Shown here: positions 1,551-18,079 of the stretch, piece after piece
Layout of the letters: the number at the start of each line of letters is the position of its first letter
How positions within the stretch are numbered: the stretch's first letter is position 1
Origin: Candidatus Nanohalobium sp.
GTDB lineage: Archaea; Nanohalarchaeota; Nanosalinia; Nanosalinales; Nanosalinaceae
Direction of reading: 5' to 3'
DNA length: 43,457 nt
Assembly: GCA_042217545.1 (NCBI GenBank)
Contig: JBDGSM010000003.1
Location: 1-43,457 of the forward strand
The notes under the pieces: generated by a model
The model's input: only the letters and a program-made list of their open reading frames with translations
Told to the model about the DNA's origin: nothing
The model's database searches: none
Position numbers and translations under genes: made by a program

Positions 1551-2957
1551 ATGGCTACAGTAATTTTTGGATTGGATGGAGCGGACCCGGAACTGATCGA
1601 AAGATGGCTTGATGAGCTCCCTAACTTCAAGAAGATAAAGGAAAAGGGTTTCTTTGGAAGTTTCAAGACTACTGAGCCCCCTATCACTGTACCGGCGTGG
1701 ATGTGTATCTTCTCGGGGAACAGGCCTTCAGATTTTGATTCATATGACTTCAGGACTGTTGATTTCGAAGACTACAGAATAAACGTTTCTAACTCAACTA
1801 ATTTTAGGGGTAAAAACCTGATAGATAATTCGGAAGATGTGATCAGCTTTCGTGTTCCGGGAACTACGCCGAAATATCCGATAGATGGTTACATGGTATC
1901 AGGTTTCATAGAGGGAGAGCAGCTAAGTTTCGAGCCCGAGTCCCTAGAGGATGAGCTTGAGGACATAGATCTTGACTTACAGGAATTTGAGGGGGATAGA
2001 TCCGAGAAGAAGGAAATCTCGAGAAGCAACTTCAAGAAAAACTATCGGGTATTCGAGAGCTTGCTTGAAGAGAAGAACTTCAAGACTGCTTTCTCGGTTT
2101 TCCGACTGGTTGACACCCACATGCACAATGTCGATGAACAGAAAGATATGCTTGAAGTCTACAAGTTAGCTGACAAGTACCTTGGGAAGATGATGGATTT
2201 AGCGGAGAAGGAAGAACACGATCTTGTTGTTCTGTCGGATCACGGCTCTATGCAGACTGAAAGGAAACTTTATCTGAACAATTACCTGAGACAGAAAGGA
2301 TTTCTCGAGTACCAGGATGAAGAGAGCTCCGTTCTAAGAAGATATGAGGAGAAGATAGGATCACTTCTTGTAAATTTAGGTTTCAAGAAGGAGGTAAAAA
2401 AACTTCTATCTATCTACTCCAGCTTGACCGGCAAGGATCCTCAGCAGACACAGGGCACAATCCTTCCAAACATCAAGAAAGAAGAAACTGAGGCCTTCTG
2501 CTATATCTCCGGAGTCTCCAGGTACGGTGCTATCTGGCTGCACGATGACAGGTTCAGCAAAGGTGTGGTCGAGAACAGAGAGAAAAAGGCAGATGAAATA
2601 GAAGAGCAAATTCAGCAAGAAAAGTTCATAGATGAAGTGGCCAGGCCTGAAGACTTCTGGACAAACCCTGAAATGCCCGATATCCTTGTAAAAGCAGACA
2701 AAGGAATAGTCATAGGAGGAGAACCCTACAATGTTAATTTCCACAAAACCTCAGCCGTCGTCCATGACGGAAGAGGTCTTCTAGCTGGGATAGGGCCTTC
2801 TTTCGAAAAGGGAATATCAGTTGAGAAGAACTATAGGGATATAGCTCCGACAATCCAGGCCTTGCAGGGGGAAGTCGATATCTCAACAGGGGACGTTCTC
2901 GAGGAGATAATTGCTGACGTAGACTACGGGAAGGAGTTGAAGGGATTGGATATTTAG
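1551..2957 (+). CDS. Alkaline phosphatase superfamily / type I phosphodiesterase-like protein
   Basis: VIFGLDGA metal motif, PPITVPAW..IFSG nucleophile loop (Thr), VVLSDHG, late H-D-G-R-G; no signal peptide. Confidence 0.85.
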   Translation: MATVIFGLDGADPELIERWLDELPNFKKIKEKGFFGSFKTTEPPITVPAWMCIFSGNRPSDFDSYDFRTVDFEDYRINVSNSTNFRGKNLIDNSEDVISFRVPGTTPKYPIDGYMVSGFIEGEQLSFEPESLEDELEDIDLDLQEFEGDRSEKKEISRSNFKKNYRVFESLLEEKNFKTAFSVFRLVDTHMHNVDEQKDMLEVYKLADKYLGKMMDLAEKEEHDLVVLSDHGSMQTERKLYLNNYLRQKGFLEYQDEESSVLRRYEEKIGSLLVNLGFKKEVKKLLSIYSSLTGKDPQQTQGTILPNIKKEETEAFCYISGVSRYGAIWLHDDRFSKGVVENREKKADEIEEQIQQEKFIDEVARPEDFWTNPEMPDILVKADKGIVIGGEPYNVNFHKTSAVVHDGRGLLAGIGPSFEKGISVEKNYRDIAPTIQALQGEVDISTGDVLEEIIADVDYGKELKGLDI

Positions 2958-2987
2958 GATGCTAATTCACTATTTTTAATGTGTAAA

Positions 2988-4004
2988 ATGGAATCAAAAA
3001 AAGTAGCTGTTTTGGCTTCGAGATTCTACAGATATGGAGGAATCCCTAGAGTCGTCACAAGGCTGTTGGATAATCTTGAGGAAATTGAGGGGTTAGAGTT
3101 TGATGTTATAACTTCGAGGACAGACTTTTATTGGGCTGAAAGAGTGGATGCAGATATAAAACAAATTTCAACTTATCCTCACCCGGTTCTAAGTTTCTTC
3201 AACCCTTTAACTATCAGGAAAATGGAGGAATATGACCTTGTATGGATTCATAACACATATTTGAACAGGCTGTCTACAATATTGGACACTCCAACTATTG
3301 CTACTTTTCATCCTCCACATAGGAGATATTCAAGCATATTTGACTTTGAAAGAGGTGTTCAAGCCACTCTAGAATCTTTTCTTCAGGAAAGAGGGTTGAG
3401 ATATCTACAGTTCACAGATAGAGTGGTCGGTATTTCAGATGAGGTTAGGGAAAGGTTAACGGAGCATTATAAAGCAAATGCTGTTAGAATTTATCATGGG
3501 GCCGATCTTCCTGCGAGTGAGAAGTCAGCAACGTCTGAAGAATTTATATTCGCATTTGCTGTGGATGCAACCGTAGAATCTGTTGCTGAGGATTATCCCG
3601 TAAAGGCGCTGACTTCAACAGGTCAGATAGAGGAAATAGAGGATAAGACGGATTCAGGCCTTATTTCTGCAATCAAGAGATCTAAGTTTGTGGTTTCCGG
3701 GTCTTTTCAAGAGGGTTTCGGCCTTGAGCCTGTTGAAGCAGCTTTCTGCGGCAAGCCGGCAGTTGTTAGGGCAGTAGGAGGACACGAAGAAACTATAAAT
3801 CACGGTGAAACAGGTTATCTGGCTAATAATAGTAAGGAATTCAAAAAGTTCGTAGAAAAATTATGGGGGGATGAGGCTCTAAGGGAAAAAATGGGCGGGA
3901 AGGCCTTTGAAAGAGCTAAAGATAAATTTACTTGGAGAAGAGCTTCTTTGAAGTATCTAGAGGAATTTAATGATCTTATGGGTACAAGTTTCCAACTAAA
4001 CTAA
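2988..4004 (+). CDS. Glycosyltransferase family 4 (GT-B)
   Basis: YGGI N-terminal motif, QEGFGLEPVEAAFCGKPAV (EX7E), HGETGYL, KFTW; start ATG 2988 (or 2979); visibly AT-rich codons. Confidence 0.9.
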   Translation: MESKKVAVLASRFYRYGGIPRVVTRLLDNLEEIEGLEFDVITSRTDFYWAERVDADIKQISTYPHPVLSFFNPLTIRKMEEYDLVWIHNTYLNRLSTILDTPTIATFHPPHRRYSSIFDFERGVQATLESFLQERGLRYLQFTDRVVGISDEVRERLTEHYKANAVRIYHGADLPASEKSATSEEFIFAFAVDATVESVAEDYPVKALTSTGQIEEIEDKTDSGLISAIKRSKFVVSGSFQEGFGLEPVEAAFCGKPAVVRAVGGHEETINHGETGYLANNSKEFKKFVEKLWGDEALREKMGGKAFERAKDKFTWRRASLKYLEEFNDLMGTSFQLN

Positions 4005-4990
4005 AAGTCTATGTTATCTGTTTCGCTCTGGTACCGGCCTTCCCTCTCTATAATTTCTCCTTTACCGATCTTACTTAGGAGCATTCTTAGATCTTCTCTT
4101 AGTATGGTTTTTTTCAGGTCTGATTCTCCCTTTGTTGGCTCCCAACTACCATTCTCAAATCGCCAGGCAGTATCATAAGATACATAGCCATCGATTACAC
4201 TTCTCCCGGCTTTCGGACATTTCTCTACTAAGTTAATCCCATCATTTTTGAGCGAAGAGCCTTTCATCAAGTTAAGCGCTGTTTCTGTCAGGTCAATTAA
4301 TCTTGCGTTTTCTTCTTGAATGCCATCGTAGTTGAGGAATACTGTTGGTACTTCCACTAGCTCCCTACTCATAGGGTGGCCGTGTGCAAATCTACGCCTA
4401 AAATTTTTTCTTTCACCTAAGAGTTCGCCGTGATCTGAGGTGAATATTATCAGAGTGCTTTGCTTCAATCCTCTTTTCTCAAGCTCCTCTATATGTTCCC
4501 AAAAATGGCTTTCGACACTCTTGCTACCTTCTTCATATTTCTCATGTATGTTTTCAGAGCCTCTGACCTCTCCATCTTCCATCTGATGTGCTAGCAGATC
4601 GTTACCATGACCCATCTCCCCATAGGGTATATGTGTGTCCATGGCTCTTTCGATGTAGACGAATGGTGGTTCTATTTCGTCTAGTTCCTTCGCTTCAGGT
4701 GTGTGCTTCAGTACTGTATTTCTTACTGGGTCCAGTTCGTTGTCGTAGAAGCTGCCGTTCTCAAAGAAGTCGAATATCGTCCTGTGGTGGGCTGAGAGAG
4801 TATCGTTGAATCCTCTTACGCTGTGGTTCTCAGGGCTTTTGCCTGTGATCAGAGATGCGAAGGATACTGGGGTATGCAGTGACGGTGCTAGCGTGTTAAT
4901 CACATTTCCCTCTTCTGCTATGCTGTCTGGAACGTGGTCATATCGCAGGGAGTCTGAGACGAAGATGAAGATGTTCTCGAATTCGCTCAT
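4001..4990 (-). CDS. Sulfatase-like hydrolase/transferase (AlkP superfamily)
   Basis: NIFIFVSDSLRYD, HTPVSFASLITG, THIPY, IIFTSDHGELLGE, HGH, VPTVF; lacks the C/S-x-P-x-R formylglycine motif. Confidence 0.85.
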   Translation of the reverse strand: MSEFENIFIFVSDSLRYDHVPDSIAEEGNVINTLAPSLHTPVSFASLITGKSPENHSVRGFNDTLSAHHRTIFDFFENGSFYDNELDPVRNTVLKHTPEAKELDEIEPPFVYIERAMDTHIPYGEMGHGNDLLAHQMEDGEVRGSENIHEKYEEGSKSVESHFWEHIEELEKRGLKQSTLIIFTSDHGELLGERKNFRRRFAHGHPMSRELVEVPTVFLNYDGIQEENARLIDLTETALNLMKGSSLKNDGINLVEKCPKAGRSVIDGYVSYDTAWRFENGSWEPTKGESDLKKTILREDLRMLLSKIGKGEIIEREGRYQSETDNIDF

Positions 4991-6303
4991 ATATCTACTT
5001 CCTCTATTTCCTTGTGATATGTTATTGACTCGAGTTTTTGAAGAGTTTTTGTTTCTTTCTTTAATTTGCCGAGTAGGCTTTGAGTTATTTCTTCGTCTCC
5101 GTAGAGATGCTCTCCGTCCTCATCTATGACTGCTCTGTTTTTCCCATCTGTTATCATTTTACAGGATTTTTCTTCATCGTCAATGTTTTCTGCGATGGCG
5201 TAACCTTTGGCCTCGAAGGGTTCTCTATCCAGCAACGACTCTATCATTTTTTGTATCTCTCTCAGGGTTGTGATATCTTCTGGCTCGAACAATCCGTCTA
5301 GATTGGTTTCCTCGCTGTAAATGATGAAAGGGACTTTCAGCATCTCATCGGAGCATGAAGGTGTATCGTGTCCTTGTGCAGGCTCCTCGTGTTCCAGGGA
5401 GTTGTCGAAGAAGAGCTCTCCGTGGTCAGATGTAATTATGAATACGGTTTCGGGGTTTTCCCCCCTGTATTCGGTGATGAAGTCCTTTAACTGCTTGTCG
5501 ATATATCTTATACAGTCGTCGTATAGATTGATTCTTTTCTGCAAATTTTCGCCTTTCGCCTTCTCCCTAGCGTTCACTACACCGTCTTTAGGCCGGTAGT
5601 AAGATGAAAATTTTCTACTGAATCCTATAGGGGGAGAATATGCAGCGTGGACCTCCATGAAGTTGCAGAAGGCGAATAAAGGTTTTTCTACCTGCTTTCC
5701 TTTTCTTTTGATTCTTCTGATGCTTTTGGTAGATCCGTAGTCGGATATGCCCCACCTTTTGCCGAATTTTCTCTCGAACTTGAAACCAGCTAACTTCAGG
5801 ACTGTTCCCGGGCCCTTCTTCGCTGCTTTCTTCATGGCTGAGAGGTACTTTTCTTTCCTTGAGTCCCAGTCGCCTCTATGTATTTCCTTTAGCATTTCGT
5901 TTGAGTCTCTGTTGCCCATGTCCGATGCCCAGAGCTGGAAGTCGAAGTCGTCGAAGGCCTCATCGTATCCGTAGAGGTCGTTCACCCACATGTTGTTGCT
6001 GTTTCCGTAGGTATGGTATCCTTTTTCCTTGAGGGAGTTCACTAAGAGATTTTCCCTTTCCAGCTCAGGGTTCTCGTTGCTGATTATCTTGTGGTCGGAA
6101 ACGAGATCTCCTGTGAATATCGATGCATGGCTCGGGACACTCCAGAAGGAGTTTGCGTAACATTTCTCGAATTTTACGCCTTTCTCAGCCAAGCTGTCTA
6201 TGAAAGGGGAAGTCTCCCTCTCATATCCGTAACAGCCTAGGTGATCAGGCCTCAGGGAATCTATGACCAAAAGCATTATGTCTGGTTTGTCCACTGAAGC
6301 CAT
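4987..6303 (-). CDS. Sulfatase-like hydrolase/transferase (AlkP superfamily)
   Basis: Likely start ATG 6303 (MASVDKPDIMLLVIDSLRPDHLGCYGY), WSVPSHASIFTG, NFMEVHAAY, IITSDHGE, KVPFII; S-x-P-x-H instead of C/S-x-P-x-R. Confidence 0.88.
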   Translation of the reverse strand: MASVDKPDIMLLVIDSLRPDHLGCYGYERETSPFIDSLAEKGVKFEKCYANSFWSVPSHASIFTGDLVSDHKIISNENPELERENLLVNSLKEKGYHTYGNSNNMWVNDLYGYDEAFDDFDFQLWASDMGNRDSNEMLKEIHRGDWDSRKEKYLSAMKKAAKKGPGTVLKLAGFKFERKFGKRWGISDYGSTKSIRRIKRKGKQVEKPLFAFCNFMEVHAAYSPPIGFSRKFSSYYRPKDGVVNAREKAKGENLQKRINLYDDCIRYIDKQLKDFITEYRGENPETVFIITSDHGELFFDNSLEHEEPAQGHDTPSCSDEMLKVPFIIYSEETNLDGLFEPEDITTLREIQKMIESLLDREPFEAKGYAIAENIDDEEKSCKMITDGKNRAVIDEDGEHLYGDEEITQSLLGKLKKETKTLQKLESITYHKEIEEVDI

Positions 6304-6355
6304 ACTCAGGGAAGAATTTTGGAGTCTTAAATAAGATACGAAACAAATATCTGGC

Positions 6356-7423
6356 ATGACCAAGGTTCTTGTAGTAGGCTGGGATGGAGCAAGTCATAAA
6401 CATTTGCAGGAGATACAGCCTGAGTTCTATTCCTCGCTGAAGCATAAGGGAAAGCTTTTGCCGGAAGATGTCTACAGAGGTATTCCGATCGATTCGGGTA
6501 CTGCCTGGACTACTATCACAACTGGTGTCGAGGTTGAGGATCACGGTTTTCTCAGCATCAACAACGTCGTGGAGTCAAGGAAGCTTCTAGGCCTTACCAA
6601 GAAGTTGACGAAGAACATCCCGCACAAGAAGCTGAGGACTTATGCCTACTACGGGCCTAACAAGCTGTTCAACCTGAAGGACAGGACTCCGAGGAGTACT
6701 GATGTCGAGTATAAACGTGTCTGGGATTATATCGATGGTAAGACTCTGAGCCTGGGAGTTCCCTTGACCTATCCTGCGTGGAAACAAGAGGGTGTGATGT
6801 TCTCCGGTATCCCCGCACCTTTAGAGGGTTCGAGGCCTGCGACCCATCCCGAAAAATACGGGGAGTACAGGAAGAGGTACAACGCGTACTACTACCTGGA
6901 CGAGAAGAAGACGCCTCTGGAGGAGGAGTCGCAGCCGAACCTGGAGGAGTACAAGGACAAGATCTACGAGTACAATGAGGAGGCCTTCGACGTTATCAGG
7001 GAATTAGATGAAGAGGAGGGTTTCGAGTTCGTCTTTGCGGTCTTCCCGATAATAGACGACCTTCTCCATGCCCTGGACCCGGAAGAGGACTGGGATGAGA
7101 TAGAGAAGGCCTATAACTGGATAGATGAGAGGACGAAAGAACTTGTCAATGATCTGGATCCTGAACACGTCCTGGTGATCAGCGACCACGGAATGATGCC
7201 TGCGGAGGAATCGCTGAACCCGAACCAGTACCCGGGACTGAAGATGGATCACGACCCTATGAACGGTATATGGGCCTCGGACACCGACCTGGGCCTTGAG
7301 GAGCAGAAGGACGTGACTCCTGCGATCCTGGAACTGTTCGGAAAGAAAGATTTCGAGCCGGAGAAGATGGAGATGGAAATAGATACATCGGAGGATGAAG
7401 GCCTCGAAGACATCTCGGTCTAA
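6356..7423 (+). CDS. Alkaline phosphatase superfamily / phosphodiesterase-like protein
   Basis: VLVVGWDGA, DSGTAWTTITTG, DDLLH, VISDHG, DHDPMNG, DVTPAIL. Confidence 0.85.
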   Translation: MTKVLVVGWDGASHKHLQEIQPEFYSSLKHKGKLLPEDVYRGIPIDSGTAWTTITTGVEVEDHGFLSINNVVESRKLLGLTKKLTKNIPHKKLRTYAYYGPNKLFNLKDRTPRSTDVEYKRVWDYIDGKTLSLGVPLTYPAWKQEGVMFSGIPAPLEGSRPATHPEKYGEYRKRYNAYYYLDEKKTPLEEESQPNLEEYKDKIYEYNEEAFDVIRELDEEEGFEFVFAVFPIIDDLLHALDPEEDWDEIEKAYNWIDERTKELVNDLDPEHVLVISDHGMMPAEESLNPNQYPGLKMDHDPMNGIWASDTDLGLEEQKDVTPAILELFGKKDFEPEKMEMEIDTSEDEGLEDISV

Positions 7424-7470
7424 GTTTTCTTTAAATCCCTTTATCTACAATCCTAGACTGTGATAGATCA

Positions 7471-7695
7471 ATGACGGATAATACTGTAGAGCTTTCGGAG
7501 GAGACATACGGCCTTCTGGCAAAGAGAGCAGAAGACAAAGGTTTCGATACAACAGATGAGTACATCAACTACGTTCTTGACCAGGTAGCTGAGAAAGCGA
7601 AGAAAAAGATGGAGGATGAAGAAGGCGAAGAGTTCAGCGAAGAAGATGAGGAAAAGGTCAAGAAAAGGTTGAAAGGCCTCGGATACCTCGACTAA
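7471..7695 (+). CDS. Small CopG/RHH-like protein with acidic linker and C-terminal RLKGLGYLD tail
   Basis: beta-alpha-alpha pattern (TVELSEETYGLL...DEYINYVL), acidic linker, tail KVKKRLKGLGYLD. Confidence 0.75.
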   Translation: MTDNTVELSEETYGLLAKRAEDKGFDTTDEYINYVLDQVAEKAKKKMEDEEGEEFSEEDEEKVKKRLKGLGYLD

Positions 7696-7740
7696 CTTCC
7701 TATCTTTCTTTTTCTATACCGGTCCATTTATTAATCAAGG

Positions 7741-7755
7741 TGCATAAGTTATGCA
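7741..7755. promoter_or_regulatory. Inverted repeat TGCATAA-G-TTATGCA, putative RHH operator
   Basis: Perfect 7-bp arms between a TATA-like TTTATTAA (7727-7734) and the ATG at 7758. Confidence 0.55.
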
Positions 7756-7757
7756 TC

Positions 7758-7955
7758 ATGCCCAGGAAGACTATCTCCCTGCCGGAGGATCTCGCGGACT
7801 TCGTGGATGAGAACCATATCAATCTCTCCAGATTCGTCCAGGACAAGCTTAGAGAGCTCGCTGACTCTGAAAACGGAGATGAGGATGAGATAACGGAGGA
7901 GCAGGCGAAAGAGATCTACCAGAAGCTGGAGAAACTGGGCTACTTAGACAGGTAG
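7758..7955 (+). CDS. Small RHH (CcdA/CopG-like) protein with C-terminal KLEKLGYLDR tail
   Basis: MPRKTISLPEDL...INLSRFVQDKL is an RHH signature; ATG 7758 preferred over GTG 7740. Confidence 0.75.
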   Translation: MPRKTISLPEDLADFVDENHINLSRFVQDKLRELADSENGDEDEITEEQAKEIYQKLEKLGYLDR

Positions 7956-7962
7956 AGTTACA

Positions 7963-8172
7963 ATGGAGAAACACAGAAGGACTTTGCTTAAAGCAGCTTC
8001 TTACAGGGTTTTCGCAACTCTAACAGTCTTCGCAGTTTCATTCGCATATACAGGAAGCTTTGCTTCGGCAGCGAGTATAGGCCTTACAGCTGCTGTCGCT
8101 AAAACAATGCTGTATTATTTGTGGGAGAGGCTCTGGAACAACATCTCCTGGGGCCTTGAGGTAGAAAACTAA
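7963..8172 (+). CDS. DUF2061 family small membrane protein
   Basis: RTLLKAASYRVFAT...KTMLYYLWERLWNNISWG matches the DUF2061 pattern; the family is often found beside sulfate-activation genes. Confidence 0.85.
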   Translation: MEKHRRTLLKAASYRVFATLTVFAVSFAYTGSFASAASIGLTAAVAKTMLYYLWERLWNNISWGLEVEN

Positions 8173-8194
8173 TGCTAGGTGACAAATTAATGTA

Positions 8195-8294
8195 CGAAAA
8201 TCAGAGATTTTCTGGACATACAGAAAATTACGGTGAAATTTTGAACGAAGATTTGAAGAAATCTTCTTGCAGAAAACACGCGAGGCGAGTTTTC
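8195..8294. repeat. Array of four short hairpin repeats in alternating orientation (CGAA..TTCTG / CAGAA..TTCG family)
   Basis: 8195 CGAAAATC-aga-GATTTTCTG; 8221 CAGAAAATT-n7-AATTTTG; 8246 CGAAGATTT-gaag-AAATCTTC; 8270 CAGAAAAC-n11-GTTTTC. Confidence 0.8.
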
Positions 8295-8296
8295 AA

Positions 8297-9082
8297 ATGA
8301 AAGTTATCGGTATAGACGCGGCTACTTGGGACATGATAAAACCTCATAGAGACGAACTTCCAAACTTTGACAGGCTGATGAACGAATGCGATTACAAGAC
8401 TGTGACTGTCGAGGAGACGCCAAAGTCAGCTCCTCTGTGGACTTCGATCTTTACAGGCCTTCGTCAGAGCCAGCACGGCCACAAAGATTTTGTGGTTGAC
8501 GACGATTTACAGAAAAGGGAGGATATAGATGGGGACTTTGTCTGGGAGGTCATGGAGGACATAGATTCCAGGATACTGCAGATTCCTTCGATTATCCCGC
8601 CGATCAACTACAACACAAGTTATGAGCCGGAGGGCTTCGGAGTCTCCAGCGATCTGGAAGAACTGGAGGCCGACAGGAAGAAGCTGATCGAGAAGTCGAA
8701 GGAAGTTCTTGAAGACGATCCCGAGTTCTTCGCTGTCGTCTTCATGCAGCTTGATCGCGTCAGCCATTTCTACTGGGACGATAAGGATCTGATCCTGGAA
8801 TGGTACAGGAAGATGGATGAAGTCCTGGGAGAACTGCTGGAGTACTACGACTTTGACGGCGATGAACCGCTTGTAGTACTTTCAGATCACGGTTTCGCGG
8901 AGTTCGGTGAGGGAAGGATCCAGACGCTGCCAGAGGAGACTCCTCACGGCACTCTTGAGGGCGACCACCACGAGGACGCTGTCCTGATCACGAAAAACGT
9001 TAATTTCGAGATTGAGCAGCCTGAGGACGTCGCGAAATCTATCCTGAATCATTATGGCTACGACGTGGAGGAGTTGTCATAA
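8297..9082 (+). CDS. Alkaline phosphatase superfamily / phosphodiesterase-like protein
   Basis: Start ATG 8297 MKVIGIDAATW, PKSAPLWTSIFTG, LDRVSH, VVLSDHGF, GDHHEDA. Confidence 0.85.
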   Translation: MKVIGIDAATWDMIKPHRDELPNFDRLMNECDYKTVTVEETPKSAPLWTSIFTGLRQSQHGHKDFVVDDDLQKREDIDGDFVWEVMEDIDSRILQIPSIIPPINYNTSYEPEGFGVSSDLEELEADRKKLIEKSKEVLEDDPEFFAVVFMQLDRVSHFYWDDKDLILEWYRKMDEVLGELLEYYDFDGDEPLVVLSDHGFAEFGEGRIQTLPEETPHGTLEGDHHEDAVLITKNVNFEIEQPEDVAKSILNHYGYDVEELS

Positions 9083-9084
9083 TG

Positions 9085-9105
9085 CAGAAAATCTACAGGT
9101 TTTCG
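9085..9105. repeat. Hairpin repeat unit (same family)
   Basis: CAGAAAATC-taca-GGTTTTCG directly after the TAATG at the end of the AlkP gene. Confidence 0.65.
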
Positions 9106-9141
9106 AATTACGGCTATGATCATCCAGAGCACAAGAAAAGG

Positions 9142-9167
9142 ACTTAAGTACTTAGGTGAGTAAGTTA
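9142..9167 (+). promoter_or_regulatory. Promoter/operator of the vapBC-like pair (ACTTA/TAAGT half-sites)
   Basis: ACTTAAGTACTTAGGTGAGTAAGTTA; repeated with one mismatch at 10907-10932 upstream of the paralogous antitoxin. Confidence 0.65.
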
Positions 9168-9172
9168 CTAGT

Positions 9173-9445
9173 ATGGGAGATATCAAGGTTTCGGTTCCGG
9201 ATGAGAAAGAAGAAAAATTCAGGAAAGCTGCTATGAAGGTTTTCGGACACAAGAGAGGCTCTATCAGCAAGGCTGCCACCAAAGCTTTGGATGAGTGGGC
9301 GGAAAGAATGTCTTTTGAGAAGGATTTGAAGATGCCTGAGGATCCTGTAGAATTCCTTGAAGGCAACATGGCTGGAGTTGAGGAGAGTGGTGTTGAACTT
9401 CAGGAACAAGCTAATGAGGTAAGATCAGATGAAGTGTCTAATTGA
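9173..9445 (+). CDS. RHH-type antitoxin (VapB-like)
   Basis: IKVSVPDEKEEKFR...GHKRGSISKAATKAL RHH pattern; overlaps the downstream PIN gene. Confidence 0.8.
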   Translation: MGDIKVSVPDEKEEKFRKAAMKVFGHKRGSISKAATKALDEWAERMSFEKDLKMPEDPVEFLEGNMAGVEESGVELQEQANEVRSDEVSN

Positions 9446-9839
9446 TGCGAACATCTTCCTGGAAGCTCAGCTTGAACAGGGAAAAAGTGAAGTCTGCAGA
9501 GAGTTCCTTGCTGAGGTCAGAGATGGTGACATTGAAGGAGTTTTGACTATGTTTCACGCCGATACTATAGCGGTGATGATGGAGAATAGGGGTTTCCAGG
9601 ACAAGATTTCTGGGTTCATGCTCAGTCTCTACATGTATGAAGGGCTGGACGTATTTACTCTAGAGTTATCAGGGAAGGCTAAAGCTATGATGTCTGATAC
9701 TGGACTAAGTTTCGATGACAGTATAGCCGTTCAGACAATGAAGGAGCTTGAAATAGAAAAAATTGTTTCATACGATGATGACTTTGATGGATTGAAGGAA
9801 AGAACTACTCCTGAAGAAGTCCTAAAAAATACTACGTGA
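9429..9839 (+). CDS. vapC: PIN-domain toxin (VapC family)
   Basis: MKCLIDANIFLE, LSFDDSI, IVSYDDDFD: PIN acidic residues. Confidence 0.9.
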   Translation: MKCLIDANIFLEAQLEQGKSEVCREFLAEVRDGDIEGVLTMFHADTIAVMMENRGFQDKISGFMLSLYMYEGLDVFTLELSGKAKAMMSDTGLSFDDSIAVQTMKELEIEKIVSYDDDFDGLKERTTPEEVLKNTT

Positions 9840-9847
9840 TTATATCT

Positions 9848-10765
9848 ATGCCAGAAGCACCAGTTACACGTGAAGAGATCGAGAACGCGCCTATAAAGGC
9901 AAAAATCAGGGCAGGAGAGGAAGTTGTCAAGCGAGCGCTTGAGGAGTACGACACCGATAACGTCGTCATCGGTTTCACCGGTGGCAAGGACTCCACTCTT
10001 ACGGCCTGGCTCGTGAAGAGGGTCTGCGAGGAGCACGGCTTCGACAAGCCGCGCTTCATGTTCGTGGACCACGGCCAGCACTTTGACGAGCTGGAGGACT
10101 ACGTGGAAAGACTCGCAAGCGACTGGGGATTCGAAGTCCTGGTAGCCAGAAACGATGACCTGATCGAGAAAGCAGATCAGCCCGGAGACATGGTTCCTGT
10201 AGCTGAACTTAACGAGACCAACCAGGAGGAGGCAGCAAGGATCGACGAAGAACTTGAAGAAGTACCATGGCTTATGGATACTGAAGCAGGAAACCACCTC
10301 CTCAAGACCGTGCCGATGAACGAACTCCTGAAAAAAGAAGGTATCGAAGCAGTCATCAACGGAGTTCGCTGGGACGAACACGAATCCAGGGGGGACGAGG
10401 ACTTCTACAGTCCAAGGGACAACCCAGACCACATCAGAGTACACCCGATCCTACAGCTAACAGAAAGAGATGTCTGGGACGTATCCTGGTTCCACATGGT
10501 ACCGGACATCACAGGAATCGACATAGACGAATACCCGGAGAGTCCAGAAGACCTCCCCGAAGGCCTCGCAAAGGATGACGTACCGATCTCGCCAAAGTAC
10601 TGGGCAGGATTCAGAAGTCTGGGATCCGAAGTATCCACGGACAAGAGCGCCGAAGAACCAGCATGGCTCCAGGACGTAGAGAACACGAAGGAAAGAGCTG
10701 GAAGAGCCCAGAACAAGGACGACAAAGAGATTATGGACAAGTTGAGAAAGCTAGGATATATGTGA
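9848..10765 (+). CDS. cysD: Sulfate adenylyltransferase subunit 2 (CysD)-like, PAPS-reductase fold
   Basis: FTGGKDS PP-loop, GVRWDEHESR, RVHPIL, FRSLG, ERAGRAQ...MDKLRKLGYM CysD-type tail; lacks the ECGLH motif and Fe-S cysteines of CysH. Start ATG 9848. Confidence 0.75.
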   Translation: MPEAPVTREEIENAPIKAKIRAGEEVVKRALEEYDTDNVVIGFTGGKDSTLTAWLVKRVCEEHGFDKPRFMFVDHGQHFDELEDYVERLASDWGFEVLVARNDDLIEKADQPGDMVPVAELNETNQEEAARIDEELEEVPWLMDTEAGNHLLKTVPMNELLKKEGIEAVINGVRWDEHESRGDEDFYSPRDNPDHIRVHPILQLTERDVWDVSWFHMVPDITGIDIDEYPESPEDLPEGLAKDDVPISPKYWAGFRSLGSEVSTDKSAEEPAWLQDVENTKERAGRAQNKDDKEIMDKLRKLGYM

Positions 10766-10775
10766 GCTAGTATTA

Positions 10776-10808
10776 AGGCCTGAAAAGGCCTAATCTTTCT
10801 TTATTTTT
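10776..10808 (+). terminator. Putative terminator: AGGCCT-GAAA-AGGCCT hairpin plus T-rich tract
   Basis: Two self-complementary hexamers closing a GAAA loop 10 nt after the cysD stop, followed by AATCTTTCTTTATTTTT. Confidence 0.45.
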
Positions 10809-10937
10809 TAATATCGAGTCTGTTTGTAGTTGTGGCTCAGGCTTTTGAGCTGTCCCATTTCTATTGTCTTGTCTTGGGGTATTGGGCCATCTCTATGTGA
10901 GAGAGAACTTGAGTACTTAGGTGAGTAAGTTAGTTTT

Positions 10938-11210
10938 ATGGGCGGGATCAAGGTTTCGGTTCCGGACGATAAGGAGGAGAAGTTTAGGGAAGCTGCTATG
11001 AAGGTTTTTGGCCACAGAAGAGGTTCTATCAGCAAGGCTGCTGAAAAGGCCTTAACTGAATGGGCGGAAAGAATGAATGATGAAGAGATTAATAAGTCGC
11101 AGGGACTGGGAGATTCCCTTAATGGGAATCTTGCTGATATAGAAAAATCAGGTTTAGAGTTACAGGAAGAGAGAAGGCGATTTCTGGAAGTACCTGGAAG
11201 GAGCTTATGA
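10938..11210 (+). CDS. Second RHH antitoxin paralog, orphan, C-terminus replaced
   Basis: Near-identical N-terminal ~47 aa to 9173..9445; homology ends after LELQE; no PIN gene follows. Confidence 0.75.
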   Translation: MGGIKVSVPDDKEEKFREAAMKVFGHRRGSISKAAEKALTEWAERMNDEEINKSQGLGDSLNGNLADIEKSGLELQEERRRFLEVPGRSL

Positions 11211-11406
11211 CTCCGATGGAGATCTAAGTCAGCCAGCGCCCAGAATCTGCTCGTATGATGCAGAGGAAAAGAAATTTCTGAAGAGGATATTAGACTATCT
11301 GGGCCTTGAAGTCAGTATACAGCAGAATAATGTATACGTCAAAGTCGCTAGTAGCGAAAGTTTCTTTGAGAATGTCAATCTGGTTTACGGGAAGAGAGCG
11401 CCCTGA
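11173..11406 (+). pseudogene. LAGLIDADG homing-endonuclease fragment (no start codon)
   Basis: Frame not in ORF track: EGDFWKYLEGAYDSDGDLSQPAPRICSYDAEEKKFLKRILDYLGLEVSIQQNNVYVKV...; YLEGAYDSDG fits the LAGLIDADG helix; in-frame TAG at 11155. Confidence 0.65.
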
Positions 11407-11475
11407 GGCCTTTCTGTTATCTATATCCTGTTCTACCAATGGAGTATTTAAGGTCCGTGTCCAAGTTTCTTCTCT

Positions 11476-12504
11476 ATGAAACGTTACTTGATCGGTTTGC
11501 TGGCTTTAGTGGTAGTTGCTTCTGGATGTGCGGGTTCTGGTCCGGCCAACAGTGGCTCGGGTGGAGCTGCTTTTTCTTCCATGAGTCCGCAGCAGAAGTA
11601 CAGCCATCTGATCTCTAGTAACCAGGATGCTACTTACCATGTCAGTTACAACATGACTTTTGACATGAATGCTGGGGATAGCAGAATGAGTGGCTTGCTG
11701 GGCATGATCAAGGCAATCTTTGAGAACGCTGATATTGATCTTTACAGCTACAAAGGAGATGTGAAGAGTGTTGTTTCGGTTTCTGCGCTTGGTTCGCAGA
11801 GTGTGACGGCGACATATCCTATCAAGGATTCGAACTACTCGGTTCAATGTTCGGAATCTGCAGGTTCGTCGGATCTTTCGTGCTCCTTCTCACAGTCATC
11901 AGGACTGGGTTCAGGGAACAGCGCGATGAGTACAACACCTTCCCAGGACTTCAGCGACGACCTGGATAAGATCAACCTCAGCTACGAAGGAAAGAAGACG
12001 GTAGCTGGACGTAAATGCGCCAGCTTCTCGGTAAGTATGCCTCCATCTCTCATGAACAGCAGCACTGTCCAGGGAGATGTCACAGGCCATCTATGTGTGG
12101 ATATGGAGAAAGGATTCATGTCCAGGATGGCTATGAACATGTCAATGGAGTCGTCAACAGGATTCGGAAACAACACAACTCCTGCAAACGTGTTCATAGA
12201 GTTCAAGGCCAAAGATTACAGCGAAGACGTCACAGCGTCCGATCTTGAACTGCCTAAGAACATGATCGTAGACCTCAAATGTGATGGAGGCCTTACAGGC
12301 CGTGTCTACTCCAGAGACTTCAGCGGACAGGCAGACCTTGATGTAAACGGAGAGCAGATGCAGAAACAGATCAGTTCCGGACAGATCCAGACATACAACC
12401 TGACACAGTACAGGACAAGCGGAGCCAACAGCCTCAACATCACAGCAGGAGGCGAAACCTACTCTGACAGCTGCTACCACTACGACTTCGGAGGCCTTTC
12501 CTGA
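11476..12504 (+). CDS. Lipoprotein, paralog 1 (DUF4412/LolA-like core)
   Basis: Lipobox VVASGC; TYHVSY, GKKTVAGRKC..F, LCVDMEKG; N-x-S/T sequons. Confidence 0.8.
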   Translation: MKRYLIGLLALVVVASGCAGSGPANSGSGGAAFSSMSPQQKYSHLISSNQDATYHVSYNMTFDMNAGDSRMSGLLGMIKAIFENADIDLYSYKGDVKSVVSVSALGSQSVTATYPIKDSNYSVQCSESAGSSDLSCSFSQSSGLGSGNSAMSTTPSQDFSDDLDKINLSYEGKKTVAGRKCASFSVSMPPSLMNSSTVQGDVTGHLCVDMEKGFMSRMAMNMSMESSTGFGNNTTPANVFIEFKAKDYSEDVTASDLELPKNMIVDLKCDGGLTGRVYSRDFSGQADLDVNGEQMQKQISSGQIQTYNLTQYRTSGANSLNITAGGETYSDSCYHYDFGGLS

Positions 12505-12542
12505 AGAAGAGTCCTGAAGACTTCCTATCTCCCTTCCTTTTT

Positions 12543-13442
12543 TTATTCAAGAAGCTCTCTGGCGCATTCCCTTACTGAATCCGCAGAGTTCCTGCCCGGC
12601 TTCCATCCGGTCGACTTCAGCTTCTCTATCTCAAGCCTCATCTCCGGAACATCGCCGTCCCAGCCTTTCTCCCCGCCCGTGTAAGAGTATTCCGGGTCGA
12701 GACCCATCTCATCACTTACAATATCCGCGATGCCGTCCACATCTATAGAGTCCTCGGAACCTATGTTGAAAGCAGTCCCCGAGGCCTTCCAGGCCTTGAT
12801 TATACCCCTCACAGTGTCATCCACGTGTAGATAGCTCTTCCTCTGCTTCCCGTTGCCGAGGATCGTCAACTCCTCAGGATTATCCTTCAGTTTATGTATG
12901 AAATCGTAGATAACGCCTTTCTGATTCCTGCCGCCGACAATATTTGCCAGGCGGACGATAGTCGCATCTATACCGAAGATCTGCTGATAGACCTGGCACA
13001 TGTGTTCGCCTCCGGCCTTTGTAGCGCCGTACATCGATATAGGATCAAGCAAAGCATCTTCAGGCGTCGGAATCTCCGCGTCCTCGCCATAAACTACGGA
13101 AGAAGAGGTGAAGACTAACTCCTCCACACCTGAACTCTCACAGGCCTCCAGAACATTCTTCGTACCTCTCAGATTCTCTTCGAAATCCTTATCCTGGTCA
13201 TCAGGGAACGTGTTCACCTTGGGATTAGCGGCCAGATGAAAGACAGCATCTACATCTGAAAAAGCATCTTCAAGGCCTTCATAATTCTTTATATCATGTT
13301 CAACCAGCTCTGCATTCTCCGGAACGTTTTCCTCAAGACCTGAGGACATGTTGTCGACAACCTTGACCTCGTGATCCTCGAGCAGTTTTTCCGATAGCCT
13401 TGATCCTATGAAGCCAGCTCCTCCTGTGACCGCGACCTTCAT
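12543..13442 (-). CDS. NAD-dependent sugar epimerase/dehydratase (GalE-like)
   Basis: VTGGAGFIG, FHLAA, TSSSVVYG, YGATK, GNGKQRKSYLHV. Confidence 0.92.
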   Translation of the reverse strand: MKVAVTGGAGFIGSRLSEKLLEDHEVKVVDNMSSGLEENVPENAELVEHDIKNYEGLEDAFSDVDAVFHLAANPKVNTFPDDQDKDFEENLRGTKNVLEACESSGVEELVFTSSSVVYGEDAEIPTPEDALLDPISMYGATKAGGEHMCQVYQQIFGIDATIVRLANIVGGRNQKGVIYDFIHKLKDNPEELTILGNGKQRKSYLHVDDTVRGIIKAWKASGTAFNIGSEDSIDVDGIADIVSDEMGLDPEYSYTGGEKGWDGDVPEMRLEIEKLKSTGWKPGRNSADSVRECARELLE

Positions 13443-13541
13443 ACCTGAAACTTTGTCAGTGGAACTTAAAGGCCTTGCAGCCTTAGATTTTCCCTGGTTT
13501 TAGGGAAAGTTTTTATATCATGTTGAGGTAACCTTTGCGTT

Positions 13542-14501
13542 ATGAGACTTAGCGTTGTACTGCTGGTTTCTCTTGCTTTACTGGCTTCAGGATGTGCTTC
13601 GCTTGGAGGAGGGATGACGACGGAGCAGAAGTTCAAGTCACAGCTCCAGGATATGACACAGTCCAACTACCACGTGAAGTACAAGATCTCTGCGAGCGGC
13701 AAGGCAGGGATCCTTGAGGGAGCGGTTCAGACTCCCGAGATCTACAGCAAGGGGGGCCAGTCCAAGTTCGTGGCAGGTTTCAGCTTCGGCATAGCGAGCG
13801 GTCAGATAGCCGCGTACGACATCTTCAGCGAAAGTCCCGTGATCTGTACTACATCCGGTTCCAGTTATGGGATGGGATCTCAGACCGGGCCACAGTGCAG
13901 CGTCTCCTCGAGCAACGTCTCCTTCTCGAAGGAGAAGATCGACAGATTCATGAAGAACATCTCCCTGGAGATGAAGGGGACGGAGACGGTGGCAGGAAGG
14001 AAATGCAACATGTACGAGATCACCTCCGCAGAGAACCTGACGGACAGGCTACCTGACCAGGCCTCACAGTACGGCCAGGGCAAGGTGAACATCTGTCTCG
14101 ACAGCGGAAAGGGATACCCCGCGATCATCAGCGTCAAGGCGAACCAGACATCGCAGATCAGGGAGTCCGAAGGCCTCACAGAGGTCTTCAGGCTTGAGGT
14201 CAAGGAGTACAACACCGACTTCCCTGACGGCGTCTTCGAGGTCCCTGTCGACGCTGCAGCCAGCCTCTCCTGTGATCCGTTCGAGGCAACGGTCACCACC
14301 TTCGACTACAGCGGACAGATCAAGATCTCCGTCAACGGCGGAGAGAACATGACAAGACAGGTCGAAGCCGACTCCAAGGAGACCTTCAGCCTCGACAGCA
14401 GCAAGAAAGACAGCTTCAGCAACGAGATCACTGTCTACACCGACAGCGGAGAGAGCCACACCGCAAGCTGCTACGGAAGCATCGGAGGCCCGAACTACTG
14501 A
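13542..14501 (+). CDS. Lipoprotein, paralog 2
   Basis: Lipobox LLASGC; NYHVKY, GTETVAGRKCNMY, ICLDSGKGY. Confidence 0.8.
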   Translation: MRLSVVLLVSLALLASGCASLGGGMTTEQKFKSQLQDMTQSNYHVKYKISASGKAGILEGAVQTPEIYSKGGQSKFVAGFSFGIASGQIAAYDIFSESPVICTTSGSSYGMGSQTGPQCSVSSSNVSFSKEKIDRFMKNISLEMKGTETVAGRKCNMYEITSAENLTDRLPDQASQYGQGKVNICLDSGKGYPAIISVKANQTSQIRESEGLTEVFRLEVKEYNTDFPDGVFEVPVDAAASLSCDPFEATVTTFDYSGQIKISVNGGENMTRQVEADSKETFSLDSSKKDSFSNEITVYTDSGESHTASCYGSIGGPNY

Positions 14502-14578: not shown

Positions 14579-15484
14579 GTGAAACACCGAACCCTGGTAA
14601 TCCTCGCCGCGGTACTCCTCGCCTCTGGCTGCGCATCCCAGACACCGCCGGAGGAAAGACTGAAACAGCTCAGCTCGCAGGCCTCCAACGCCACCTACAA
14701 GGTAACTTACGAGATGGAGAGGCCTGGAACATCCGTCATCAGGCAGGGCCTCACGGACCCGGTCCTCTACAGCTATGAAGGAGAGACCATGTTCAGCACC
14801 TCCACGTCCTTCATCGGGGGAAAGGCCCTGATGAACATCTACGAATACACCGAGGGAAAATCAATAACGTGCATCACCAGGAAGATCGCTGGCGCCCCTG
14901 AAAAAAGCTGTCAGATCTCAAACACGACCACAAGCCTGTATACAGAGGCCTCACGGTACGCGGACAAAGCAGACAGCATAAACGTTGCATACCTCGGAGA
15001 AAGGAAGTTCGCGGGAAGAAAATGCGGCATGTTTGGCCTGGGGATACCGGAAAAACAGTTCAAGGCCTCCTCCAGAAACACTGGCGCAAACGTGAAGCTC
15101 TGCGTCGACAAGAAAAAAGGATACGTCGCCTACATCCAGATCAACCTCACCAACCCGATCAGGACAGCGACAGGAAAAATAAACACGATACTCCAGCTGA
15201 AGGCTCTCAACTACTCCTCAAAGGTGAAAAAGAGCAGAATCGAAACTGGAAAAGGCCTCGTAACCTCCACAAGCTGTAACCCTCTCAAAGCCCAGGTTAC
15301 GTCCCTTGGATACAAGGGAAAGTTTAACCTATCCGTCAACGACGCTAATACAACCTACAGCCTGAAGAAGGCGGAGAGCAAGGCCTTTGATCTATCTAAC
15401 TCTTCTATCAACGGTGTGAACGATGTGAAAGCTTTTTATTCCGGCAAAGTTTCGTCTGCTTCCTGTAACGCTACTGCAGGCTAG
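14579..15484 (+). CDS. Lipoprotein, paralog 3 (strongly basic)
   Basis: GTG start; lipobox LLASGC; TYKVTY, GERKFAGRKCGMF, LCVDKKKGY; many Lys and sequons. Confidence 0.8.
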   Translation: MKHRTLVILAAVLLASGCASQTPPEERLKQLSSQASNATYKVTYEMERPGTSVIRQGLTDPVLYSYEGETMFSTSTSFIGGKALMNIYEYTEGKSITCITRKIAGAPEKSCQISNTTTSLYTEASRYADKADSINVAYLGERKFAGRKCGMFGLGIPEKQFKASSRNTGANVKLCVDKKKGYVAYIQINLTNPIRTATGKINTILQLKALNYSSKVKKSRIETGKGLVTSTSCNPLKAQVTSLGYKGKFNLSVNDANTTYSLKKAESKAFDLSNSSINGVNDVKAFYSGKVSSASCNATAG

Positions 15485-16289: not shown

Positions 16290-16680
16290 CAAGCTCCGAA
16301 ATATCTTCTTCAAGCAGTGAAAGCAGGTTGTACAGCAGAGAGACTCCAAGGCCCCCCAGGAAGAACGCAGGATATGCTGAGAAGGTATGCGCAAGAAGTC
16401 CGGCGAAGACTATAGGTGCAAGCGAGGCCATGTAGTGCACTGTAGCAAGAGCCAGGTACTCTGACTCGTTCTTCTTCACTTCCTGTCTGGCGCCGCCGAA
16501 ACTGGCGACAGCCAGCACACCAAACCCTAACACGGCTCCGAGGCCGTAGGAAAGCGCGTGAAACATATTCGGTGCGCCAAAGGCGTTCACAAGTACTGCA
16601 CCGGTACCCCAGAAACCTATTGTAAACCCGTAGGCCCGGGACTCACCTGCCAGCATCGATCTAAGGAAGTTCTGCCTCAC
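16273..16680 (-). CDS. Small multi-pass membrane protein
   Basis: Hydrophobic segments, ESRAYGFTIGFWG; GTG 16680 preferred as start (ORF track extends to 16740). Confidence 0.65.
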   Translation of the reverse strand: MRQNFLRSMLAGESRAYGFTIGFWGTGAVLVNAFGAPNMFHALSYGLGAVLGFGVLAVASFGGARQEVKKNESEYLALATVHYMASLAPIVFAGLLAHTFSAYPAFFLGGLGVSLLYNLLSLLEEDISELVTSSP

Positions 16681-17520: not shown

Positions 17521-17532
17521 GGTACAAATAAG

Positions 17533-18078: not shown

Positions 18079-18079
18079 A

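Follow-up and report, generated by a model that had tools for sequence, protein, structure and literature searches.

Introduction

Ribbon-helix-helix (RHH) proteins such as Mnt, ParD, CcdA and the TacA-like proteins combine an N-terminal DNA-binding dimer with a C-terminal helix or tail for protein contacts; in Mnt the C-terminal helix serves tetramerisation, and in the antitoxins the tail binds the toxin. Here we describe two small RHH-type proteins, RHH1 and RHH2, encoded in a 43,457-nucleotide stretch of DNA from Candidatus Nanohalobium sp. (contig JBDGSM010000003.1; "the window" below means this whole stretch), both of which end in a short element, [KR]L-x-x-LGY, that also terminates a CysD-like enzyme of the same cluster and that we call the LGY tail. 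RHH2 resembles Mnt and the antitoxins in its putative RHH domain with a C-terminal tail, in its position as the first gene of an operon and in its palindromic operator-like site. It differs from them in that its tail, an element of about 15 residues behind an acidic linker, is also found on enzymes of other folds, and in that the genes downstream encode a membrane protein, an enzyme of the alkaline phosphatase (AlkP) superfamily and a sulfate-activating enzyme rather than a toxin.

C-terminal docking peptides that are recognised by scaffolds are known from other systems, among them the EEVD ends of Hsp70 and Hsp90, which bind TPR proteins, and the encapsulation peptides. The LGY tail is like these in being a short conserved C-terminal peptide behind a flexible linker on unrelated clients, but the archaeal loci examined contain no conserved gene for a TPR protein or another scaffold. 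CysD (PDB 1zun) shares with the CysD-like enzyme the PP-loop fold of the PAPS_reduct family (Z 18.7) and a C-terminal ER-x-GR ... G-Y arrangement, whereas the CysD-like enzyme falls below the curated CysD cut-offs and no CysN exceeds its cut-off in the same genome. The 3'-phosphoadenosine 5'-phosphosulfate (PAPS) reductase CysH, also of this fold (2oq2_D, Z 21.2), has a mobile C-terminal segment with a functional residue, ECGLH, according to the available part of PMC5947528. The FXYXXF motif of DltX and MBOAT proteins is described in the available part of PMC12148441 as a short conserved motif with an invariant Tyr near the C-terminus, stand-alone or fused, that acts in the modification of cell-envelope polymers. 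DltX thus shares with the LGY system an invariant Tyr in a short C-terminal motif that is either stand-alone or enzyme-fused; DltX, however, is an extracytoplasmic membrane microprotein that carries an acyl group and has MBOAT and SGNH partners, whereas the LGY proteins are cytoplasmic and soluble, and the small ones are of the DNA-binding type. Neither MBOAT nor SGNH families occur among the Pfam matches of the 26 window open reading frames (ORFs) scanned.

Sulfated N-glycans are a hallmark of haloarchaeal surfaces. Agl30 and Agl31 (VNG1056C and VNG1057C) of Halobacterium salinarum were identified in 2025 as sulfatase-like, AlkP-fold N-glycan sulfotransferases, and the available part of that report names no sulfate donor, activating enzyme, regulator or tail for them (PMC11980604). 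The AlkP enzymes of the window are likewise sulfatase-like and lie in a glycan cluster of a halophilic archaeon, a likeness by kind and locus. In halophilic archaea, the LGY tail probably holds such a sugar-sulfation system and its regulators together. New here are the alignment of the tail with the C-terminus of CysD, the displacement of the CysD-like gene by genes for ATP sulfurylase (Sat) and a tailed adenosine 5'-phosphosulfate (APS) kinase (CysC), a fusion of an AlkP enzyme with the CysD-like enzyme, operator-like sites specific to RHH2 subtypes, and the exclusion of three candidate receptors.

Results

The LGY tail is shared by RHH1, RHH2 and a CysD-like enzyme

The window is contig C23 of a genome (G000) of 1.03 Mb in 82 contigs that is 92% complete, and the close homologues of its proteins are annotated as Nanohaloarchaea. 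RHH1 (7471-7695, + strand) is a CopG/RHH-like protein of 74 residues with an acidic linker and the tail EEDEEKVKKRLKGLGYLD; RHH2 (7758-7955, +) is an RHH protein of 65 residues, encoded by the first gene of its operon and ending in EEQAKEIYQKLEKLGYLDR; and the CysD-like PP-loop enzyme of PAPS_reduct fold (9836-10765, +) has 309 residues and ends in ERAGRAQNKDDKEIMDKLRKLGYM. An earlier note on this DNA had pointed out that three proteins of different folds end alike here, and all three do end in [KR]L-x-x-LGY (KKRLKGLGYLD in RHH1, YQKLEKLGYLDR in RHH2 and MDKLRKLGYM in the CysD-like enzyme).

A six-frame scan of all 82 contigs gave 6596 ORFs of at least 40 residues, five of which end in L..LGY plus 0-4 residues. 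Four are credible, namely RHH1, RHH2, the CysD-like enzyme and C42:1475-1768(-), while the fifth, on contig C68, is a hydrophobic chance match; three of the four genuine tails lie within 3.3 kb. A 20-column profile made from 42 tails recovered the same four places in the genome, with E values from 1e-7 to 3e-6. The fourth tail is the end of a sulfatase (L027, C42:1478-2805(-)) that is 92-94% identical to a 443-residue protein (P0227); its reading frame changes twice, near 2032-2036 and 1875, and the sequence now spans three frames. It is either a pseudogene or the product of an assembly error.

The earlier note had described only part of the shared element. In the alignment of the 42 tails (A6) it consists of acidic residues followed by [IV]-[KR]-x-[RK]-L-x-x-L-G-Y-hydrophobic, and the columns L14, G18 and Y19, which correspond to L(-5), G(-1) and Y(0), are invariant. 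Hydrophobic residues stand at -9, -5 and -2, followed by a Gly-Tyr cap, in a helix of about 12-17 residues.

In both RHH families the tail is the most conserved part. RHH1 has 39 homologues of 58-100% identity in which the tail is nearly invariant, and in an alignment of 22 sequences (21 homologues and the window RHH2) R66, L67, L70, G71, Y72, L73 and D74 are nearly invariant; one aberrant homologue in this alignment looks frameshifted. Among 21 RHH2 sequences, which include distant Nanohaloarchaea, the N-terminal domain falls into two subtypes with about 30% identity, and the only invariant columns are S7, V16, L57, L60, G61 and Y62. An RHH2 profile that included three halobacterial members, searched against 1.84 billion representatives, gave 1046 matches at E ≤ 0.001 and 61 at E ≤ 1e-10. 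In 140 of the 150 best matches the motif h-x-x-h-G-Y lies within six residues of the end, always with Tyr and never with Phe, and at least four of the remaining ten have the motif followed by a longer extension. The earlier note's proposal depended on a conserved tyrosine, and the tyrosine is invariant in every alignment that we made; across about 300 tails seen, Phe never takes its place. The tail is thus conserved to the same degree as catalytic residues.

Both small proteins are probable members of the RHH class. The nearest ESM Atlas clusters of RHH1 are named CopG family (score 0.92), and its structural neighbours in the Atlas include ParD- and TacA-like clusters (TM 0.60-0.65). RHH2 gives weak Pfam matches of the CcdA/RHH type (CcdA, E 0.016). 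Neither window protein matches RHH_1 (PF01402) even at E up to 1, and homologues score 20.6 (L026:11591-11824), 18.2 (L130) and 16.4 (L135) bits against a cut-off of 20.5. Both proteins are acidic and of the soluble type. The start of RHH2 is likely the ATG at 7758, in an ORF that is open from 7740.

A related helix was also observed in three large proteins of 791-1350 residues (P0341, P0425 and P0309), which carry 7-11 internal, regularly spaced helices of the form ...V..LQ.RL.ELGY[FYM]... or ...VAERLRELGY..., and which we take to be similar to helix 1 of PG_binding_1-type repeats. A capped helix of the form h-x-x-L-G-Y is therefore not peculiar to the tail system. Literature searches returned no description of an LGY tail motif (a match for "LGY motif" was unrelated), nothing linking sulfotyrosine with haloarchaea and nothing on Nanohaloarchaeota together with sulfatase and glycosylation.

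Two sulfate-activating routes occupy one operon slot

To place the tailed genes in their operons, we mapped 45 nanohaloarchaeal loci by tblastn and scanned 41 related genomes; the latter are kin rather than independent samples, and several are incomplete, so that counts over them describe a pattern and are not a test. The conserved order in families f1 and f4 is RHH2-(DUF2061)-PDE271-CysD-like(LGY), PDE271 being a Phosphodiest-family AlkP enzyme, and in four loci (L015, L016, L019 and L034) RHH2 is followed directly by the CysD-like gene. In family f3, the genomes G031 and G039, in which no CysD-like gene was found, have the order RHH2-PDE488-ATP sulfurylase (PF01747)-APS kinase(LGY) with RHH1 nearby, and G035 has the same order of RHH2-PDE488-Sat-CysC(LGY), split over two short contigs. 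G005, of family f1, combines RHH2, Sat and a tailed CysC, and here an AlkP gene precedes RHH2. Two unrelated sulfate-activating routes fill one operon slot, and the last activating enzyme is tailed in both. In addition, PDE271 and the CysD-like enzyme are fused in G030, where a 570-residue ORF (L024:8461-10173(-), the same as L048:5420-7132) contains both Pfam domains and the LGY tail.

The tailed APS kinases of family f3 and G005 have 202-209 residues and match PF01583 with 195.5 bits (L111:4185-4799(-), L110:13911-14519, L113:6885-7514(-) and L120:2453-3061(-)). The tail is present on five of the seven true APS kinases among the relatives; two genomes that have an APS kinase, G025 and G028, show no tail. 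Tails span the folds PAPS_reduct, APS_kinase, Sulfatase, Phosphodiest and RHH.

That RHH-LGY genes accompany sulfate or glycan loci, as the earlier note had expected, is strongly borne out by Pfam scans of the window and of the operons of its relatives. RHH-LGY proteins (E < 1e-6) were found in 23 of the 31 genomes with a CysD-like enzyme or a true APS kinase and in none of the ten with neither. One genome of the latter kind, G020, nevertheless has a tailed sulfatase. The idea that the CysD-like enzyme is the obligatory one that charges the tail did not hold up, since RHH-LGY proteins and tailed enzymes occur among G031, G035, G039 and G020, in which no CysD-like gene was found.

These arrangements bear on a reading in which the tails have no shared partner and each is a structural or cis-acting element of its own protein, a lid in the CysD-like enzyme and an oligomerisation or autoinhibitory helix in the AlkP and RHH proteins, their likeness being a common helix-capping solution or the product of domain shuffling without common function. 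The tail follows function and not fold, sitting on APS kinase where APS kinase replaces the CysD-like enzyme, tails are concentrated in a single operon, and genomes with RHH-LGY proteins are also those with genes for sulfate activation, all of which speaks against it. On its side are the recurrence of the h-x-x-L-G-Y helix inside the unrelated large repeat proteins and the C-terminus of the CysD-like enzyme itself, whose tail is ancestral, aligns with canonical CysD and follows an invariant ER-x-GR at pLDDT 70-77 with no disordered linker. The sulfatase model described below, which shows no confident packing of the tail against its own core, also speaks against this reading, and we judge it improbable.

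RHH2 is a candidate autoregulator with subtype-specific operator-like sites

A promoter- and operator-like region lies directly in front of the RHH2 operon (7727-7755, +). It contains a TATA-like sequence, TTTATTAAT (7727-7735), and, between this box and the start codon, a palindrome, TGCATAAGTTATGCA (7741-7755), which is separated from the ATG at 7758 by 2 nt. Of 18 distinct upstream regions of orthologues, 10 contain an exact copy of it, seven a partial one and one none. In the second RHH2 subtype, 6-7 of 10 regions, one halobacterial locus included, contain TAATTA-N4-5-TAATTA instead, and each subtype has its own conserved palindrome at the promoter. Since these operator-like sequences co-vary with the RHH2 subtype, they match what is predicted for a sequence-specific autoregulator, and by this sequence evidence RHH2 appears to be an autoregulator and not merely a carrier. 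Upstream of RHH1 we noticed an SD-like GTGATA, and no conserved palindrome was seen in that region.

RHH2 does not look like a type II antitoxin. Its 3' neighbours are DUF2061, Phosphodiest and CysD-like genes, with no cognate toxin gene directly downstream.

The earlier note had offered two functions for the tail, a relay of sulfuryl groups and a coupling of the pathway state to transcription. The subtype-specific palindromes fit the second better than the first.

Tailed sulfatases and phosphodiesterases in relatives

The statement in the earlier note that many haloarchaeal sulfatase-like proteins end in RL..LGY agrees with what we found: 118 of the 120 best homologues of a tailed sulfatase of a relative (L115; 37-100% identity, Nanohaloarchaea and Halobacteria) carry the tail, and the two without it are truncated. 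Records named Natronomonas pharaonis, Halorhabdus and Haladaptatus are among these homologues. In an alignment of 117 sequences (A7), L435, L438, G439 and Y440 are invariant alongside metal-site residues. This subfamily has a near-invariant Thr at the formylglycine position and His for the Arg of the motif (consensus APWTLPSH), which, by sequence, would fit a transferase-type AlkP enzyme better than a hydrolytic arylsulfatase. The window sulfatase at 4987-6363(-) is a relative of this subfamily. Tailed members of the Sulfatase family include L013:13579-15018(-), L022:1911-3221, L114:5275-6597 and L115:5516-6844, and tailed members of the Phosphodiest family include L116:1059-1973(-), L117:4073-5005(-) and L051:17492-19069(-).

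An AlphaFold2 (AF2) model of the tailed sulfatase made from the 117-sequence alignment has a core with pLDDT above 90, a linker at 45, a tail block at 68 and an end at 48, with residues 428-438 helical. In this model the tail forms a helix of its own, set off by a linker of low confidence, and its packing against the rest of the enzyme is not confident. Docking of the tail in cis on the AlkP core was considered and rejected, as the model gave no confident packing at these linker and tail values.

The system extends to Halobacteria. Five halobacterial genomes each have a CysD-like gene, and four of them also have tailed AlkP enzymes (307-520 residues) and one or two RHH-LGY proteins, whereas the tail of the CysD-like enzyme is the sole match at E ≤ 0.05 in the fifth (G043). 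Three of the five small halobacterial RHH-LGY proteins are encoded directly beside GT2, GT4, epimerase or Phosphodiest genes.

The C-terminus of the CysD-like enzyme

The CysD-like enzyme matches PAPS_reduct (PF01507) with 80.3 bits against a cut-off of 22.5, and the residues T48, G49, G50, K51, D52 and S53 of the PP-loop motif [ST]GGKDS are invariant among 57 sequences. It lies below the curated CysD cut-offs (PRK05253, 78.6 vs 195; TIGR02039, 52.8 vs 396.6; PRK12563, 50.7 vs 413). Its AF2 model has a pLDDT of 91.8, and its fold matches at Z 18-22 comprise FAD synthase, PAPS/APS reductases and CysD (1zun_A and 2oq2_D as given above, and 6vpu_F with Z 18.2); the alignments with the PAPS reductases 2oq2_D and 6vpu_F extend to model residues 308-309. 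The family reaches Halobacteria at about 53% identity.

In the 57-sequence alignment (A3), L303, G307 and Y308 are invariant. The tail helix (297-305, pLDDT 70-77) directly follows a conserved ER-x-GR-AQ-x-K segment, with neither a disordered nor an acidic linker. The statement in the earlier note that CysD proteins end in GY proved sound, because the CysD-like profile aligns through the end of Pseudomonas syringae CysD (1zun_A, ...KKRQGY, residue 324 of 325): positions 153-310 of profile A2 align with residues 130-324, including the ER-x-GR ... G-Y segments, and CysD has Lys and Gln in place of the two tail leucines. From this alignment, the CysD-like tail is an elaboration of an ancestral CysD feature. 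In the crystal chain of 1zun_A only 204 residues are ordered, up to about residue 211, and the CysD tail is unseen. A query with the 70 C-terminal residues of the CysD-like enzyme against PDB sequences gave chance matches only (E 1.7), and the CysD passages of PMC10853773 and PMC5770160 contain nothing on the CysD C-terminus.

Among the best 120 matches of the CysD-like enzyme, 97 end at the motif, 20 have an extension after it, one is a variant (A at -2) and two are truncated. The extensions after LGYM comprise 8-20 mostly hydrophobic residues, for example A-V-P-L-F-A-V-G-L-Q... (P0042-P0113, e.g. P0067; also L016 and L023), and by their composition they could be membrane-associating. The window gene stops right after LGYM, and reading through its stop yields no such hydrophobic extension. 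If membrane proximity matters to the system, as the extensions suggest, the tail itself might be an amphipathic helix that recruits soluble enzymes, and for short periods the regulator, to the cytoplasmic side of the membrane, the site at which glycans linked to dolichol phosphate are sulfated. Basic and hydrophobic residues do alternate before the aromatic residue, the operon includes a gene for a membrane protein, DUF2061, and the substrates are presumably lipid-linked (available part of PMC11980604). The hydrophobic face is narrow, however, with three aliphatic residues and one Tyr, the strictly invariant Gly and Tyr point to a specific contact with protein, the extended proteins presumably needed their extension because the tail alone does not anchor, and a promoter-bound repressor would be an odd client, so we regard membrane targeting as highly unlikely.

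The genome, at 92% completeness, has no CysN over cut-off, its best TIGR02034 match (268.3 bits against 336.1), which we take to be an elongation factor, falling short, and neither an ATP sulfurylase nor an APS kinase over cut-off. Without these enzymes, some way of pulling APS formation would be needed. One such way would be a covalent shuttle, in which the tail Tyr, on a flexible arm, would hold a sulfuryl (or phosphoryl) group for a short time as an aryl ester and deliver it to sulfatase-fold transferases. The absence of the three enzymes agrees with this, and arylsulfatase-type enzymes are known to act on aryl sulfates. Phe never replaces the invariant Tyr, the disordered linker of the tailed sulfatase would permit swinging, and the CysD-like enzyme shares the PAPS reductase fold, with alignments that reach residues 308-309. 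The C-terminal Cys of PAPS reductase reacts with PAPS. The single catalytic Cys of PAPS reductases sits in the C-terminal ECGLH motif, as stated in the available part of PMC5947528, and the occurrence of the motif both stand-alone and fused to enzyme C-termini repeats the pattern of the DltX FXYXXF motif (available part of PMC12148441). Against the shuttle, the position of RHH2 at the head of the operon and the subtype-specific promoter palindromes indicate regulators rather than carriers, and tails persist in genomes in which no CysD-like gene was found, on APS kinase, which has no known reason for a Tyr-sulfate. Moreover, the constancy of L(-5), G(-1) and Y(0) may simply reflect the structural needs of a Schellman-type helix cap, and Thr in place of the formylglycine residue (APWTLPSH) sets the tailed sulfatase subfamily apart from classical arylsulfatases. 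On balance, we consider a covalent shuttle unlikely.

A fuller version of the shuttle would run as follows. The CysD-like enzyme would make APS and trap its sulfuryl group on a tail Tyr, in a step resembling that of PAPS reductase, which has the same fold, with its C-terminal cysteine; AlkP enzymes would use sulfo-Tyr tails, either their own or those of the small carrier-regulators, as donors for lipid-linked glycans; and sulfation of the RHH tails would report a donor surplus to the promoter. This would constitute a PAPS-independent sulfation route and name the missing donor for archaeal AlkP-type sulfotransferases, but we give it little credence.

Other genes of the operon and the glycan cluster

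The tailed genes lie in a glycan-biosynthesis cluster that spans window positions 1-13,500 and contains RHH1, RHH2, the DUF2061 protein, PDE271, a VapB-like/PIN pair and the CysD-like enzyme. DUF2061 is a small membrane protein (7963-8172, +; PF09834, 67.6 bits) and an accessory member of the operon. It occurs in 11 of the 41 related genomes, and all 7 of the 11 whose surroundings were read have it in the sulfation operon, whether the operon is of the CysD-like or the Sat/CysC type (for example G005:C23:4232-4381(-) and G014:C32:30473-30622(-)); this location suggests a sulfate-related membrane role. The literature on DUF2061 held nothing bearing on sulfur in the titles or the beginnings of the abstracts. 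PDE271 (8297-9082, +; PF01663, 84.4 bits) is a tail-less AlkP-superfamily Phosphodiest protein of 261 residues; its ORF from 8267 is probably over-extended, as judged from orthologues that start with MKVIGIDAATWD.

Inserted between PDE271 and the CysD-like gene are a VapB-like gene (9173-9445, +) and a PIN gene (9429-9839, +; PF01850), a separate insertion that does not belong to the tail system. A pair of this kind directly upstream of the CysD-like gene recurs in just one of the orthologous loci, L032; L039 has a divergent VapB/PIN pair upstream of RHH2 on the other strand, and L047 has a VapB-like match only, next to the CysD-like gene. A second VapB-like copy of 90 residues (10938-11210) lies just 3' of the CysD-like gene, which is thereby flanked by related small ORFs.

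The cluster further includes a Wzx/MATE-type flippase (3-1493, -), a GT4 glycosyltransferase (2979-4004) and an epimerase (12543-13442, -), and additional epimerase and nucleotidyltransferase (NTP transferase) genes follow just past it (15534-19018). Besides PDE271, its AlkP-family ORFs are a Phosphodiest-family enzyme ending in ...KELKGLDI (1551-2957, +), a sulfatase-like enzyme ending in ...ETDNIDF (4001-4990, -), a Sulfatase-family enzyme with the degenerate tail ...TLQKLESITYHKEIEEVDI (4987-6363, -; PF00884, 128.3 bits) and a Phosphodiest-family enzyme ending in ...GLEDISV (6356-7423, +). With five AlkP-family ORFs beside a flippase, a GT4, epimerases and an NTP transferase, the context is of the Agl30/Agl31 type.

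We also noticed a second recurrent C-terminus of AlkP enzymes in these clusters, hydrophobic-[DE]-hydrophobic at the extreme end. In the window it appears as ...KGLDI, ...DNIDF, ...EEVDI and ...EDISV (in the four enzymes just listed, in that order), and in relatives as ...GGIDV, ...RMVDI, ...SGIDI, ...EEIEI and ...AGIDF (L110:408-1271, L110:2991-3860, L119:6078-6950 and L120:6087-6950(-)). A loose pattern of this ending matched 12 of 775 non-overlapping ORFs of at least 150 residues in the genome, three of the 12 being AlkP enzymes of the cluster; the enzyme ending in ...EDISV is absent from the 12, even though the pattern had been designed to include it. An AlkP enzyme seems to have one or the other, this ending or the LGY tail.

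Two further observations concern the neighbourhood. An ORF of 251 residues (15534-16289) has an N-terminal RHH_1 domain (26 bits, over cut-off) and an NTP_transferase domain and would join an RHH domain covalently to a sugar-nucleotide enzyme, as a putative fusion or as two genes read together. Three paralogous proteins of 300-340 residues with lipoprotein-like N-termini (...LLASGCAS...; 11476-12504, 13542-14501 and 14579-15484) flank the epimerase gene, and one of them gives a weak DUF7537 match.

Discussion

Our preferred reading, to which we give about an even chance, is that the LGY tail is a portable docking or oligomerisation helix that links sulfate-activating enzymes, AlkP-fold sulfotransferases and RHH regulators. 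RHH2 would repress the operon by binding to the palindrome, and its tail would keep it in physical contact with the tailed enzymes, either by way of a common receptor or by bundling of tail to tail, much as the C-terminal helix of Mnt serves tetramerisation and the tails of RHH antitoxins bind their partners, so that the level or state of the enzymes would feed back on transcription. The same tag would place the activating enzyme beside the AlkP-fold transferases, and scarce APS or PAPS could be handed on directly; we propose such a hand-over because the enzymes that would pull the reaction, CysN, ATP sulfurylase and APS kinase, were not found in the genome. The smallest conserved unit, RHH2(LGY) with an activating enzyme(LGY), speaks for a direct relation of one tail to the other.

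Several observations weigh against this docking reading. No universal receptor emerged among three candidates that we considered and rejected: the CysD-like enzyme gave no match in the tail-bearing genomes G031, G035, G039 and G020; PDE271 is absent in L015, L016, L019 and L034 and is replaced by another AlkP enzyme in family f3; and DUF2061 occurs in only 11 of the 41 relatives. With 11-17 residues the helix is rather short to form a stable bundle, and a purely hydrophobic contact would not require that Tyr never be exchanged for Phe. The 20 CysD-like homologues that extend past LGYM show that a free C-terminus is not required. In the CysD-like enzyme, moreover, the tail follows a conserved, catalytic-looking segment without a flexible linker, and judging from the model it may be an active-site lid in that protein rather than a docking tag.

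The position of the motif at the C-terminus after a disordered acidic linker, and its presence on both the regulator and the target enzymes, could also be understood if it were a tag for turnover or handling, either a degron or a motif recognised by chaperones, through which the pathway members and their repressor would share one lifetime. Yet the motif need not be terminal (0-6 residues follow it, and 8-20 in some CysD-like proteins), the loci scanned have no conserved gene for a protease or chaperone, and there is no precedent in these families; to this explanation we attach hardly any weight.

The LGY tail is a widespread short linear motif of which literature searches returned no description. 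Shared tail and operon link AlkP-fold sulfotransferases to a divergent CysD-like enzyme, to the Sat and APS kinase that replace it and to a large RHH family (1046 representatives at E ≤ 0.001). This gives testable candidates for the missing parts of the sulfation pathway, and the tail peptide provides a handle for pulling out the complex.

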